Source: an uncultured Bacilli bacterium (GTDB lineage: Bacteria; Bacillota_I; Bacilli_A; RF39; UBA660). From it: a stretch of DNA of 64,000 nt. The notes beneath the pieces were generated by a model. It worked only from the letters and a program-made list of their open reading frames with translations. It did no database searches and had not been told where the DNA came from. Below, one piece after another: positions 26,653 to 32,365 of the stretch. The stretch is taken from NCBI GenBank assembly GCA_947632595.1, contig CANRPY010000002.1, forward strand, positions 23,951 through 87,950. Reading direction: 5' to 3'. Position 1 is the stretch's first letter; the number at the start of each line of letters is the position of its first letter. A program made the translations under genes and the position numbers.

Positions 26653-27336
26653 TTACCTATAAAAGTTGTTATCCATATAAAGCTGTTCTACTAAGGTATC
26701 TCCTCCAATTGGATAGAAGTTTCCTTTTAGATTTTCTTTCATCAAAGGCATTTCTCCTTTTGGCAATTCATTTGCTCCATTTTTTAACTTCTTTTGGTAG
26801 TCTTCAAATAATTCTTTAAATCTAGCATAGTGTACTACTTCTCTTTGCCTTAACCATAGTAATGGTCCTATGACATCAGGATCATCTGTTAAGTCAATTA
26901 AGTTTTCATACACTGCTCTTGCTTTTTGTTCTGCTGCCATATCTTCGGCTAGGTCGGCAAGAGGATCTCCTGTTGTTGCGAAGTAAGTTGCCGTAAAGGG
27001 TACGCCATTCGAGTCTGTTGGGTATAGGGCTTTTGCATGTTCTGCGTAGTGAGCATCAAGTCCTGCTTCTTTTAATTCTTCTAGGGTTGCATCTTTCATT
27101 AATTGATAGACCATAGTCTCAAGCATTTCCACATGTCCTAATTCTTCGGTTGCGATATCATTTAATAAGGCTTTTCCTTTGTTATCTGGCATCGTCATTC
27201 TCTGATTCATATAACGAAGTGCCGCTGCTAACTCCCCATTGGATCCTCCATATTGTGTTACGATATATTTTGCCATTCTTAAATCCTTTTTTTTAATATT
27301 TACGGGATATTGTAATCGTTTTTGATAACTAAACAT
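26653..27336 (-). CDS. cotJC: Manganese catalase family protein (CotJC-like)
   Basis: YGGSNGELAAALRYMNQRMTM...EELGHVEMLETMV is the Mn-catalase ferritin-like motif. Overlaps the upstream cotJB-like gene by 8 nt. Confidence 0.75.
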   Translation of the reverse strand: MFSYQKRLQYPVNIKKKDLRMAKYIVTQYGGSNGELAAALRYMNQRMTMPDNKGKALLNDIATEELGHVEMLETMVYQLMKDATLEELKEAGLDAHYAEHAKALYPTDSNGVPFTATYFATTGDPLADLAEDMAAEQKARAVYENLIDLTDDPDVIGPLLWLRQREVVHYARFKELFEDYQKKLKNGANELPKGEMPLMKENLKGNFYPIGGDTLVEQLYMDNNFYR

Positions 27337-27796
27337 TTCTTCCCTCCCATGGCCATGTGGATGATACCCAGTTGAAGGATGTCATTTCACCATTTATGGT
27401 TAGTGGCCCATATTTTTTCTCATACTCTTCTACTAATCGATTTGCTTTTTGTTCATAATCTCTAAATAGTAGAAACATGCTTTGATCTTCTGGATGAAGA
27501 TCTAGGTATAGATTTAACTCGTGTGCAGCAAAGGCAATGGCAGATAATTCATAAAGGCATTTTTCTTGTTCTGTTTGGGGAGTAAGGGTTGCTGGTTGAT
27601 AGTTCTTATAAGGACTATATAGTTCTTTCCATAAATTTCCTTTTAGGAAAGCTTCGGTTGGATTGAATAAGTTATTTTCTGGAAGTGGCATGGGAGATGG
27701 ATAAAAATTCGTTGGTTGGTATAGGTTTTCATTTCTTATCCAATCATAGTTTATCTTATTATTCATAAATTCTCCTTTCTTATTAATGTATTCCAT
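27329..27796 (-). CDS. cotJB: Spore coat protein CotJA-CotJB fusion
   Basis: The N-terminal half, NLFNPTEAFLKGNLWKELYSPY, is CotJA-like. The C-terminal half, ELNLYLDLHPEDQSMF...YGPLT, is CotJB-like. Confidence 0.6.
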   Translation of the reverse strand: MEYINKKGEFMNNKINYDWIRNENLYQPTNFYPSPMPLPENNLFNPTEAFLKGNLWKELYSPYKNYQPATLTPQTEQEKCLYELSAIAFAAHELNLYLDLHPEDQSMFLLFRDYEQKANRLVEEYEKKYGPLTINGEMTSFNWVSSTWPWEGRNV

Positions 27797-27854
27797 CTTC
27801 CTTTTTCTATTAGGGCATTGGCCTACTTTTTTCGGTAAAATCTATAAATAATAC

Positions 27855-27883
27855 TTGTCAAATGTTGGATTTACTGATAGAAT
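27855..27883 (+). promoter_or_regulatory. SigA-type promoter for tRNA-His
   Basis: TTGTCA-17nt-TAGAAT, ~20 nt upstream of the tRNA 5' end. Confidence 0.55.
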
Positions 27884-27902
27884 ATATTTGTATTTTTGAA
27901 AT

Positions 27903-27979
27903 GGCGCCATTGGTGAAGTGGTTAACACGCTAGTTTGTGGCACTAGTATGCAAGAGTTCGATTCTCTTATGACGCCCCA
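27903..27979 (+). tRNA. tRNA-His (anticodon GTG) with G-1
   Basis: G-GCGCCAT TG GTGAAGTGGTTAACAC...anticodon loop TTGTGGC...T-arm GTTCGATTC...ATGACGC C CCA. The extra 5' G is diagnostic for His. One C-A mismatch in the acceptor stem. Confidence 0.85.
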
Positions 27980-28017
27980 TTTTTGAAAATTGTCGATGAA
28001 TTTCGACTTACAGATAG

Positions 28018-28045
28018 ACTCAATGATTGTTATTGAGTTTTTTTG
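28018..28045 (+). terminator. Intrinsic terminator after tRNA-His
   Basis: ACTCAAT-gattgtt-ATTGAGT hairpin followed by TTTTTTT. Confidence 0.65.
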
Positions 28046-28313
28046 TGCCTCAAAAAGCATTCGTTGTTCCCTATTTATTCCAATATTAAGGTTCGGGGAG
28101 AAAAAGAAAAGAACTTGTAAAAGCTCAATTTTTATGTTATTCTGTATGTAGCAAGAAATCTTGCGTAAAATAAAAAAGGGAACATTCAGTTTTTCAGAGT
28201 TGAATGTCTACCCAAATTTAATTGTGTTAGGCACTTATTCTAGCGAATGAGTGTTATTTTTTTATAACTACTATCATAAAAGACCAATTCTTAGAATTGA
28301 TCTTTTTTGTTTT

Positions 28314-30067: not shown

Positions 30068-32365
30068 TTATTCTTCTATTTTTTTAATCATTTGTTTTGC
30101 GGATGCATTTGGTACCATAGTCTCTGTTGCGATTGCGATCATTTGATCTAAGAAGATATCCATATTGTCTTTATATAACAATAGTACCTTTTTTAGTGTT
30201 TCTCTAATTTCTTCTTCTGGAATTCCTAAGAAAGAAGAGATTGCTTCTATTTCAAAATATTTTCCATCTACATATCCTAGACGAAGAGAAATAATGATGG
30301 CTTCTTTGACACTTAATTTTCCAAGCATTTTCTCAAAGGAAGGAGTACGAAGAAGCTCTAACATTTTTTCACAATCTTCTTTTACAATGGTTCCTGCTGT
30401 CTCTTGTTTTTGGATTGGTTTAGGAGAATCTACTGGCACCTTTTGTTCTTCTGTTGGAGGCACTGGAGATACAGGAGTAGCTGGTGTTGGAGTCTCTGCT
30501 TGCGCTACTACATTTTCTACTGAAGAGATTTTACGCGTTGTTCTTCTCTTACTAGGTGGTCTTTTTCCCGTAATTTCTTGTAGAATTCTTTTCATCTTTG
30601 GAACAAGAGATGTATAAAATCTTGTTTGTTCTTCTTTGGTCATTTTTGAAGATACAGGATGCTCTAGGTCATCTCCATAACGAAGTCTTACTAATTCTCT
30701 ATCTTCTGGGGATAGTCTTGTTAACATCTCATCTACTTGTTCTTTTGTATAATCACTAAAATATTGATAAATGGATTTTAATCTTGCCATATTTTCTTTT
30801 TCCTTCTTTCTTGCTCTTTTTGATTGGGTAACCCCTGCTTCTTTTAAAAAGGCTTTATTGGAACCTTCGGAATTTCTATATGCTGCCCGATATTCTTTGA
30901 CATTTTGTAGAGATTGTTTTGGGTTATCGGTATAGATTGCAAAGTCATCTACTTTTTTCTTGCTTCTTAGTTTTCTTAATGCTTTGGATTCTATTTGTCG
31001 AATTCTTTCTCTTGTTACATTAAAATATTTACTTACTTCTTCTAAGGTTCTTGTTACATTGTCTTCTAATCCATATCGTAGGGTTAAGACTTGTTTTTCT
31101 CTTAACGTTAGACAAGAATCTAGATATCTTTGTAGTTCTTCTGGTAGGCTGTTTCCTACTGCAACATCTTCTGGAGAATCTTTATCGGATGGGATAAAGT
31201 GTTCTAACTCGGTATCTTCGTCATCTCCTACAAAGGAATTAATACTAATAGTATCTTGTTGAGAACTATATAATTTTTTTGCTTGCTTTAAGGAGATGTG
31301 CATTTCATTGGCTACTTCTGATAAGTTAGGTTCTCTGCCAAGTTTTCCTTCTAGTTTTTGCCAGGTTTTTCGAAACTCTCCTATTTTTTCTACTACATGA
31401 ACAGGAAGTCTTACATTTCTTCCTTTGTCTGCGATTGCTCTTGTGATTGATTGGCGAATCCAGGTAATTGCATAGGTTGAGAATTTAAATCCTTTCGTTG
31501 GATCAAACCTCTCTACTGCTTTCATAAGACCAAGGTTCCCTTCTTGAATTAAATCCATAAAGGATAGGCCTCTTCCTACATATCTTTTCGCAACGGTTAC
31601 CACTAGTCGGAGATTACTCTGAATAAATAAATTTCTTGCTTCTAAATTTCCTTCTAATATTTTATGAAATAGTGCTTGTTCTTCTTCTCGATTTAGTAAT
31701 TTATATTTTCCAATTTCTCGTAGATAGTCTCCTACGATACTACTAGACATTTCTTGTTCGATAATGGTTGTTTGCTGTTCTTCTTCCTCTTCCTCTTCTT
31801 TTTCTTTTTTCTTAATATCATGTAGTATCGCATAAGCATCTATTAAAGAAACTAGGAAAGTGTCTGATAAATACTCTTCTAAAATATCTTCTTCGTAATA
31901 CTTTTGATATTTTTTAAATTCTTTTTCCACTAATTTATCAAATAGACTAGACTCTTTTAATAGAGATAACATATGATCTGGATCTAGTGGATATTGATAG
32001 ACTGTTAAAAATTCATTTAGGGATTGTAGTTTTTTCTCGAAGTCTTTTTCTCGATTCATTGTTAAGTAATTTTCTACAATCCTTGTTCTATCTTTTGGTT
32101 TTCTTAGGCAATCATGGAAGAATGAAGAGAATGCTTCATTTAGTTTTTCTTCCATGAGTTTTTCAAATGAGTTTGCTTCCTTATATTCTTTTTGTTGTTT
32201 TGCAATTTCTTCCCGGAGTCTCTTTCTTAAGGTATCTACTTCTAGGGCAAACCTTTTTGCTCTCTCTTCTATTTGGTTAATGAGAGGTGTTAAAAGGCGC
32301 CATAAGTCTTCTGGATTTTGTTGCATTGTTCCATTCATTGTTGCTTCCAAGGCAAAACCTCCCAT
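30068..32365 (-). CDS. Sigma-70 family RNA polymerase sigma factor (RpoD-like core) with ~200-aa N-terminal and ~290-aa C-terminal extensions
   Basis: Region 2 [43 protein letters not shown]. Region 3 [13 protein letters not shown]. Region 4 [18 protein letters not shown]...[27 protein letters not shown]. Two more region-4-like HTH units: [16 protein letters not shown]... and [43 protein letters not shown]. Confidence 0.8.

Follow-up and report, generated by a model that had tools for sequence, protein, structure and literature searches.

A sigma-70 factor of uncultured gut Bacilli with a C-terminal cassette related to region 4

Few bacterial proteins have been studied as closely as sigma factors, whose domain plan, sigma1.1-2-3-4, passes for fixed. 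A gene in a 64-kb stretch of DNA from an uncultured Bacilli bacterium (assembly GCA_947632595.1, contig CANRPY010000002.1, positions 23,951 to 87,950; this whole stretch is called the window below) raises the question of what a sigma factor might do with more than one region 4. An earlier note, made from the letters alone, had read the open reading frame (ORF) as a sigma-70 factor with three region-4-like helix-turn-helix (HTH) units and a long N-terminal extension. Judging from the sequence, its product is an alternative sigma-70 factor of group-2-like type that derives from SigA, in a low-GC lineage of uncultured gut Bacilli, and the identity statements made here are, taken jointly, ones that we hold with high confidence. 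Its tail carries two degenerate relatives of region 4 that recur in other genomes as a portable cassette. We propose that this sigma4-derived tail would act as a protein-interaction appendage. The explanation as a whole, identity and mechanism together, we regard as evenly poised between right and wrong.

Is such an ORF genuine? A frameshift or an assembly error fusing a sigma gene with the gene downstream, which the earlier note had named as grounds for giving up its description, is conceivable in principle, since free-standing genes for the tail modules exist and can sit directly downstream of sigma genes. Yet the identical 765-amino acid (aa) ORF with the same neighbours is found on NODE_31, an 89-kb contig of ENA assembly ERZ27249068, and in an independent Logan assembly, from different samples, the same architecture occurs in more than 50 independent genomes, and the junction between sigma and tail, a motif that follows region 4, is itself conserved. 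P0003 is a full-length homologue with 47% identity over 99% of the query, and P0004, P0005, P0011 and P0014 are further full-length homologues. A scan of 185,579 species genomes with an alignment of the tail returned 115 relatives; 53 ORFs at the 80 retained loci show this tailed architecture, so relatives do share the extension, and the fusion of sigma and tail also occurs in hundreds of clusters at 50% identity. The artefact reading is effectively refuted and retains next to no probability. Two canonical RpoD matches, P0006 (696 aa) and P0013 (456 aa), carry exact internal duplications of region 2-4 or region 4, which look like assembly artefacts and not like biological reiteration of sigma4. 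The start codon of the window ORF is ambiguous: M1 (ATG) has a poor ribosome-binding site (RBS), and an ATG at codon 10 (M10), with GGAAG 5 nt upstream, fits the starts of the homologues better than the annotated M1, giving a protein of either 765 or 756 aa.

The core is that of a complete sigma factor. Regions 1.2, 2, 3 and 4 all score above the Pfam gathering thresholds (Table 1), which places the protein in the Sigma-70 family; it is not an extracytoplasmic function (ECF) factor of sigma2 and sigma4 only, as regions 1.2 and 3 are present. A clean profile of region 4 (R4) gives 100 bits on the true region 4, whose recognition helix is identical to canonical SigA at the key residues. Because the determinants for the -10 element (RQxITRAI; RQSITRAI in the window protein), the extended -10 element (VHxxE) and the -35 element (TRERIRQIE) are kept, this sigma, like those of group 2, should take RNA polymerase to promoters of the SigA type. 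Region 2.3 of the window protein reads 'YAITWIRQ' in place of 'YATWWIRQ' in SigA, with ITW for TWW; of the two conserved Trp residues, the first has given way to Thr in the window protein, to Asn in P0003 and to Ser in P0002. We refer to tailed sigmas of this type as class A. Their true region 4 is followed by the conserved motif YxDNPxQ...YRxxY...SNKAFLKE, and the post-region-4 segment used as a query matches many class A loci.

Could this be the housekeeping sigma of the lineage, an RpoD/SigA with lineage-specific decorations? The best NCBIfam matches are RpoD models, regions 1.2-4.2 and the recognition residues are SigA-like, and no second sigma gene lies within the 64-kb window. Nevertheless, we consider this very unlikely, because the protein fails the cutoffs of all RpoD/SigA equivalog models by far (the best, NF006666, gives 329 vs 572 bits), region 1.1 (PF03979) was not found in the window family though canonical matches have it, and the core of tailed sigmas is only ~50% identical to any SigA, that of their own genome included, compared to ~71-92% among true SigA orthologues (92.5% between L070 and L042, two related genomes, and ~71% to other Firmicutes). 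Class A cores also evolve about three times faster than SigA (mean distance 0.85 vs 0.26). The gene lies outside a dnaG-sigA operon, as the earlier note had pointed out, in a window that has no dnaG, and is preceded by a gene for an XRE-type transmembrane (TM) protein. L070, on the other hand, has the classical order, with a 368-aa sigA that includes region 1.1 directly behind dnaG and a trmK-like gene next, and a tailed paralogue together with three free-standing cassette genes is found ~5 kb downstream of dnaG-sigA; L042 also holds a 363-aa canonical sigma. The second, canonical rpoD for which the earlier note had proposed to search is thus present in related genomes, while none lies within the window. 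These comparisons rely on identities and distances because a neighbour-joining phylogeny was too noisy to separate class A from SigA, owing to fast-evolving sequences, fragments and midpoint-root artefacts.

What, then, follows region 4? We distinguish two modules, termed YF and CTD (C-terminal domain), separated by the Pro/Thr-rich linker that the earlier note had seen (aa ~600-660), which is predicted to be disordered and varies in length and sequence across the alignment of relatives. Scored alone against Pfam with HMMER, YF matches Sigma70_r4_2 with 17.2 bits (cutoff 25.7; E-value (E) 0.004; aa 542-569, model positions 2-29 of 54) and CTD matches Sigma70_r4 with 15.4 bits (cutoff 24.1; E 0.013; aa ~681-728, model positions 2-45 of 50), so that of the three units in the earlier note only the true region 4 stands above the cutoff. 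The homology of the other two emerges from profile comparisons. With clean, non-overlapping instances of true region 4 (n=120), YF (n=206) and CTD (n=181), hhalign gave 96.6% for CTD vs region 4 (E 5e-10, 56 columns spanning 4.1-4.2), 95.5% for YF vs region 4 (E 1.6e-8, 52 columns) and 62% for YF vs CTD. The tail profile matches region 4 of solved SigA structures in the PDB (E 4e-6), and on the window protein itself the clean R4 profile hits CTD with an independent E-value (i-E) of 6.6e-5 and the CTD profile hits region 4 with an i-E of 0.005. Each of the ten free-standing tail proteins examined matches Sigma70_r4 or r4_2, and in four cases the match passes the gathering score. Iterated hidden Markov models (HMMs) of YF, CTD and R4 drifted into one another, which is informative on homology and made them useless for labels, so modules were labelled with non-iterated clean profiles. 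On these comparisons YF and CTD are homologues of region 4 that have become too divergent for Pfam's membership rule; three region-4-like units are present by descent, two of them below the family threshold.

In some relatives, better-preserved extra copies of region 4, scoring up to 62.8 bits, are placed after the true region 4 and ahead of the YF modules. P0352 has a second region 4 at aa 656-727 with 62.8 bits and 'VTRARLNQIE', L074:8243-10792 a copy at aa 491-563 with 54 bits and P0012 one at aa 593-664 with 41 bits; other extra copies occur in P0280 (aa 533-599) and P0022 (aa 599-740). All of these copies resemble evolutionary intermediates, those of P0352, L074, P0012 and P0280 stages of a duplication, and in the proteins that carry them they might truly read a second -35-type element. 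Such better-preserved intermediates in P0352, L074 and P0012 point to an origin of the tail in duplications of region 4 within the gene.

The modules differ from their presumed ancestor in a telling way. Mean net charge is +5.3 for true region 4, 0.1 for YF and -4.1 for CTD, and YF is itself split into a first half of -3.2 and a last helix of +3.9. The -35-reading TRERIRQIE of the recognition helix has become 'eexEVietT' in CTD (within 'GIeexEVietTKK') and 'iPKMkrlL' in YF ('LiPKMkrlL'), so neither module has the basic HTH with TRERIRQ of a functional region 4. In both, region 4.1 ('LtxRExxVLxLRfG') is retained, e.g. as 'LseeekxLixlRYG', and the Pfam matches of YF cover the region 4.1 half only (model positions 1-22 or 2-29). 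AlphaFold2 (AF2) modelled the full-length protein with a mean predicted local distance difference test (pLDDT) of 72 and the domains with 75-90. CTD is predicted as a sigma4-like helical bundle ending in a C-terminal helix of ~30 residues (aa 717-747), and YF (pLDDT 85-90) ends in one continuous helix (577-599) instead of an HTH, with no separate H3; a Foldseek search with the whole model recovered sigma cores only. In sigma70 region 4, H1, H2 and H5 contact the beta-flap and the H3-turn-H4 reads the -35 element (PMC2988021). Since region 4.1 (H1-H2) is retained and the residues of H3-H4 are replaced, the modules have kept the protein-contact half of sigma4 and lost its DNA-reading half. The reiterated -35 binding by which the earlier note had imagined a multi-promoter recognition device is unlikely, because the -35-reading residues are lost and CTD is acidic, and the missing HTH in the YF model speaks against it as well. 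Conservation is highest at the very end of the protein: mean pairwise identity falls from 56% in CTD through 49% in the core and 47% in YF to 29% in the N-terminal domain (NTD).

The cassette is portable. A tail-only query (aa 481-765) found tails with 45-50% identity on sigmas of ~450-490 aa, whose N-terminal halves match SigK/SigE best among NCBIfam models, below cutoff and without the pro-sequence part of these models; the same tail makes up entire proteins of 190-290 aa. An exhaustive HMMER pass over 1.84 billion representatives yielded 1,154 clusters with E <= 1e-3, of which 712 reached <= 1e-10. The 134 newly listed proteins follow a simple grammar: an RpoD-like sigma, a SigE/K-like sigma or nothing, then (YF)n-linker-CTD with n = 0-15, and in 95% no domain follows CTD. 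With n = 1, the window protein represents the minimal form. Among 252 tailed sigmas, 13 are without YF and only two without a true region 4, which makes CTD the constant element, added to region 4 and not a substitute for it; CTD as a replacement of region 4 was rejected on this count. The two exceptions are P0237 (484 aa), with CTD directly after region 3, and P0360 (494 aa), with YF and CTD after region 2, which may be deletion derivatives or cases of CTD standing in for sigma4.

The SigE/SigK-like carriers of a (YF)n-CTD tail, called class B, are 444-515 aa long and lack the pro-sequence part of the SigE/K models. They include loci L002, L005, L009, L021-L023, L025 and others (e.g. L021:9308-10726) and proteins P0130, P0145, P0151 and P0178; P0273, also class B, has 1,607 aa and 15 YF copies. 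Gene context did not bear out an assignment of class B as the sigE of a spoIIGA-sigE-sigG operon. Carriers of the cassette are almost all metagenome-assembled genomes (MAGs) of uncultured gut 'Bacilli/Tenericutes/Erysipelotrichaceae' from rabbit, human, ruminant and chicken. Cassette contigs L007, L050, L076 and L062 belong to MAGs that bear the names Methanobrevibacter, Muribaculaceae and Roseburia; they probably reached these bins as contaminants, because the distribution is otherwise exclusively Bacilli. CTDs do not sort by sigma class, and those of one genome are often closest to one another (83% identity in L038, 55-67% in L057, 70% in L030), while the co-resident CTDs of L070 and L069 are only 24-26% identical. 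Free-standing cassette proteins are often encoded beside tailed sigmas. At L070:9746-12670 and L057:8701-11083, three to four free-standing YF-YF-CTD genes in tandem border a tailed sigma directly, on its downstream or upstream side; the CTDs of the L070 array are 70-84% identical to one another and only ~25% to that of the adjacent sigma. The conservation of CTD, together with its failure to segregate by class and its likeness within several genomes, points to a shared, co-evolving partner or to frequent exchange of cassettes.

The other end of the protein is equally particular to the family. No credible Pfam or NCBIfam match was obtained for the N-terminal 210 aa, and hhalign rejected both a hidden region 1.1 (0.5% vs canonical SigA N-termini) and a degenerate sigma2, sigma3 or sigma4 (<=1% vs each of these, class B, YF and CTD), in agreement with the earlier note, which had seen an extension of ~200 aa unrelated to sigma factors. 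Modelled alone in AF2, the NTD reached a pLDDT of 85 and a predicted template modelling score (pTM) of 0.75, and Foldseek found no significant fold match for it in PDB or BFVD; its weak, non-significant matches are enriched for whole compact sigma factors, namely sigma28/FlgM, WhiG, sigmaE/RseA and phage sigmas, and for the sigma-like domain of PhyR. The NTD occurs in class A proteins, the untailed P0064 included.

The genes around the window sigma add little to this picture. The HTH_3 and TM domains of the XRE-type protein encoded directly upstream were found as the earlier note had described them, and the gene downstream encodes a signal peptidase of the S26 family, the label 'SipW-like' aside. 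These neighbours are incidental: neither they nor the nearby Zn-ribbon and CotJB/C genes are conserved next to homologues. Clustering of the neighbours of the 53 class A genes brought out other sigma/cassette genes as the sole recurrent ones (22 genes at 11 loci, e.g. L046, L057, L069, L070 and L030, where class B precedes class A), and no conserved anti-sigma-like partner. The window is otherwise ordinary chromosome, with glmS, glycosyltransferases, tRNA-His and cotJB-cotJC, from an AT-rich genome (31% GC), and a scan for promoters and terminators gave matches at chance expectation. The cotJB-cotJC pair at 26653-27796 (CotJB, E 4e-23; Mn-catalase-type CotJC, E 3e-57) implies that the lineage is spore-forming or was so recently; a weak CotJA match at aa 41-63 of the 155-aa CotJB ORF suggests a CotJA-CotJB fusion. 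The tRNA-His (GTG) lies at 27904-27979 (+) in the gap that separates the cotJ genes from the Zn-ribbon membrane gene, and a 72-aa ORF over it, 27842-28060 (-), is spurious.

Table 1. Features of the sigma factor gene; positions are those of the window.
Feature	Residues (aa)	Position	Strand	Basis
Complete ORF (765 aa), tailed sigma-70 factor of class A		30068..32365	(-)	ORF listing and full-length homologues
Segment of ambiguous start		32339-32365	(-)	RBS comparison of M1 and M10
NTD, family-specific all-helical domain in place of region 1.1	~15-188	31802..32323	(-)	AF2 model, profile comparisons
Acidic low-complexity linker	189-208	31742..31801	(-)	pLDDT <50, sequence composition
Sigma-70 region 1.2	211-240	31646..31735	(-)	PF00140, 31.2 bits, E 2e-7, above cutoff
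Sigma-70 region 2	248-316	31418..31624	(-)	PF04542, 85.7 bits, E 2e-24, above cutoff
Sigma-70 region 3	326-400	31166..31390	(-)	PF04539, 56.8 bits, E 2e-15, above cutoff
True region 4, canonical recognition helix	404-475	30941..31156	(-)	PF04545, 77.0 bits, above cutoff, best stretch 418-467
Post-region-4 segment, then basic spacer	476-527	30785..30940	(-)	Conserved in class A alignment
YF module, degenerate sigma4 copy (one copy here)	531-599	30569..30775	(-)	Clean YF profile, 115 bits, E 3e-35
Disordered linker, basic then Pro/Thr/Glu-rich	600-660	30386..30568	(-)	pLDDT 30-41, composition
CTD, acidic sigma4-like terminal domain	661-749	30119..30385	(-)	Clean CTD profile, 131 bits, E 3e-40

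The sigmas closest in kind are the primary-like, non-essential ones of group 2 (RpoS, cyanobacterial SigB-E, Streptomyces HrdA-D), which like the window sigma have regions 1.2-4.2 with SigA-like -10 and -35 residues and no region 1.1. They coexist with a housekeeping SigA, as tailed sigmas do in L070. The window sigma differs from them by its family-specific NTD of ~190 aa and its sigma4-derived C-terminal cassette of ~290 aa, and we found no described group 2 sigma with such an NTD or cassette. Fused C-terminal extensions that probably modulate the sigma in cis, with no cognate anti-sigma gene alongside, are also found in ECF41, ECF42 and ECF56 of the SnoaL_2 type (e.g. SigG1, PMC7730460). 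However, those are sigma2-sigma4 proteins with SnoaL- or TPR-type extensions, whereas the window family has an RpoD-like core (SigE/K-like in class B) and extensions that are duplicates of sigma4, repeated 0-15 times and also free-standing. PhyR is instructive as a functional analogy only: it carries a degenerate, sigma-derived domain that does not read promoters and acts as an anti-anti-sigma decoy, the principle that may apply here. It is a separate response regulator with an ECF-like sigma2-sigma4 domain, unlike the tandem sigma4 copies fused to real sigmas in our family, and the window sigma has neither a NepR-like partner nor a receiver domain.

Control of promoter binding or holoenzyme formation by an acidic domain or a factor acting at sigma4 and the beta-flap is known from the auto-inhibitory region 1.1 of sigma-70, from AsiA and from Rsd (PMC2988021), and the substitution F563Y in sigma70 weakens AsiA binding (PMC2988021). 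The acidic domain of the window protein differs in being C-terminal and homologous to sigma4, and a protein like AsiA or Rsd plays no part. The anti-phage system MZA has a sigma of its own, MzaA (NF041931), which is, like the window protein, a member of the sigma-70 family with more than 700 aa, and its model matches the window protein with an E of 1e-89. Membership was nevertheless rejected at 301.8 bits vs a cutoff of 800: the match is confined to the sigma core (model positions 475-717 of 726), the extra sequence of MzaA is N-terminal and unrelated to the window tail, and no Mza partner genes lie nearby. In Pfam, NCBIfam and the searchable literature we found no description of YF or CTD, of the NTD, or of any sigma in which sigma4 is reiterated, and searches on reiterated region 4 or on C-terminal extensions of sigmas in this lineage returned nothing relevant, which bears out the earlier note's view that the architecture is not a described one.

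What might the tail do? Between the two functions put forward by the earlier note, we favour the auto-inhibitory or anti-sigma-mimic tail. Because H1-H2 are kept and the DNA-reading residues of H3-H4 are lost, the cassette most likely works by mimicry of sigma4: it would present the flap- and protein-contacting half (4.1, H1-H2) and would not re-read the -35 element. In this way the tail could bind a partner of sigma4, be it the beta-flap tip of core RNA polymerase, a sigma4-directed regulator or anti-sigma factor, or sister sigma4-like domains. In cis, auto-inhibition or tethering by the tail would tune which sigma reaches the polymerase; in trans, free-standing paralogues would compete and modulate holoenzyme formation, with the YF copy number setting valency. 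The occurrence of one tail on two sigma classes and as stand-alone proteins, the strict grammar and the conservation of CTD beyond that of the core all agree with an interaction module. Still, this mechanistic part, a sigma4-mimic tail that modulates sigma use, is offered tentatively and the chances lie somewhat against it. Several points count on the other side: any binding partner of the tail is putative, the full-length AF2 model (pTM 0.30) carries no information on docking of the tail to the core, and the near absence of sigmas in which CTD replaces region 4 lends little support to occupancy of the flap site. Given the basic charge of its terminal helix and of the spacer that follows, YF may bind DNA non-specifically, and a few relatives such as P0352 keep a second region 4 with TRxRxxQIE-like residues. 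Moreover, a canonical SigA alongside the tailed sigma was seen only in the relatives L070 and L042 and is presumed for the window organism, so that of the features that define group 2, coexistence with a group 1 sigma comes from these two genomes, and the architecture and recognition residues come from the window protein itself.

Other readings share much of this evidence. A broader version of the proposed mimicry, in which sigma-domain decoys form a lineage-wide system of control over sigma competition whose arrays occupy or compete for the docking site on the beta-flap or a sigma4-directed regulator and whose repeat number sets avidity, would amount to a new principle of sigma regulation but is doubtful. 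Alternatively, the extra modules could bind upstream DNA (UP-element-like or AT-rich sequences or extra -35-like boxes) and so extend or multiply promoter recognition. Both descend from a DNA-binding HTH domain, YF closes with its basic helix and a K/R-rich spacer, the host DNA is AT-rich and the second region 4 of P0352 is near-canonical; yet the invariant and most conserved module, CTD, is acidic with every -35-reading position changed, YF resembles only the 4.1 half and is modelled with a single helix where an HTH would be needed, and a YF copy number that ranges from 0 to 15 between close relatives, along with free-standing arrays, ill fits a defined promoter geometry. We judge DNA binding unlikely, and what speaks for it concerns YF with its spacer and the second region 4 of P0352, not CTD. 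The same low probability attaches to a homotypic scaffold, in which CTDs would bind each other through the long terminal helix and YF arrays would serve as spacers or multivalent adaptors, clustering RNA polymerases or sequestering sigmas. A single, nearly always terminal CTD with a 30-residue helix, the clustering of tail genes and the likeness of CTDs within genomes whatever the sigma class (L038, L057 and L030) would suit such a scaffold. Against it, the co-resident CTDs of L070 and L069 have diverged widely, any CTD dimers are putative, and the likeness within genomes is equally well explained by recent shuffling of cassettes.

Whichever of these readings applies, a family of more than 1,000 clusters at 50% identity departs from the sigma plan, with 1 to >15 degenerate sigma4 copies on two unrelated sigma classes and the same arrays encoded separately, all in uncultured host-associated Bacilli that abound in the guts of humans, rabbits, ruminants and chickens. 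Where databases leave these sequences blank, two domain families without annotation so far, YF and CTD, are hereby defined, along with a likewise unannotated NTD. If the modules are mimics of sigma4, they would represent a new control of sigma competition that does without anti-sigma factors of the classical kind; should they bind DNA instead, promoter recognition would be extended by a new means.

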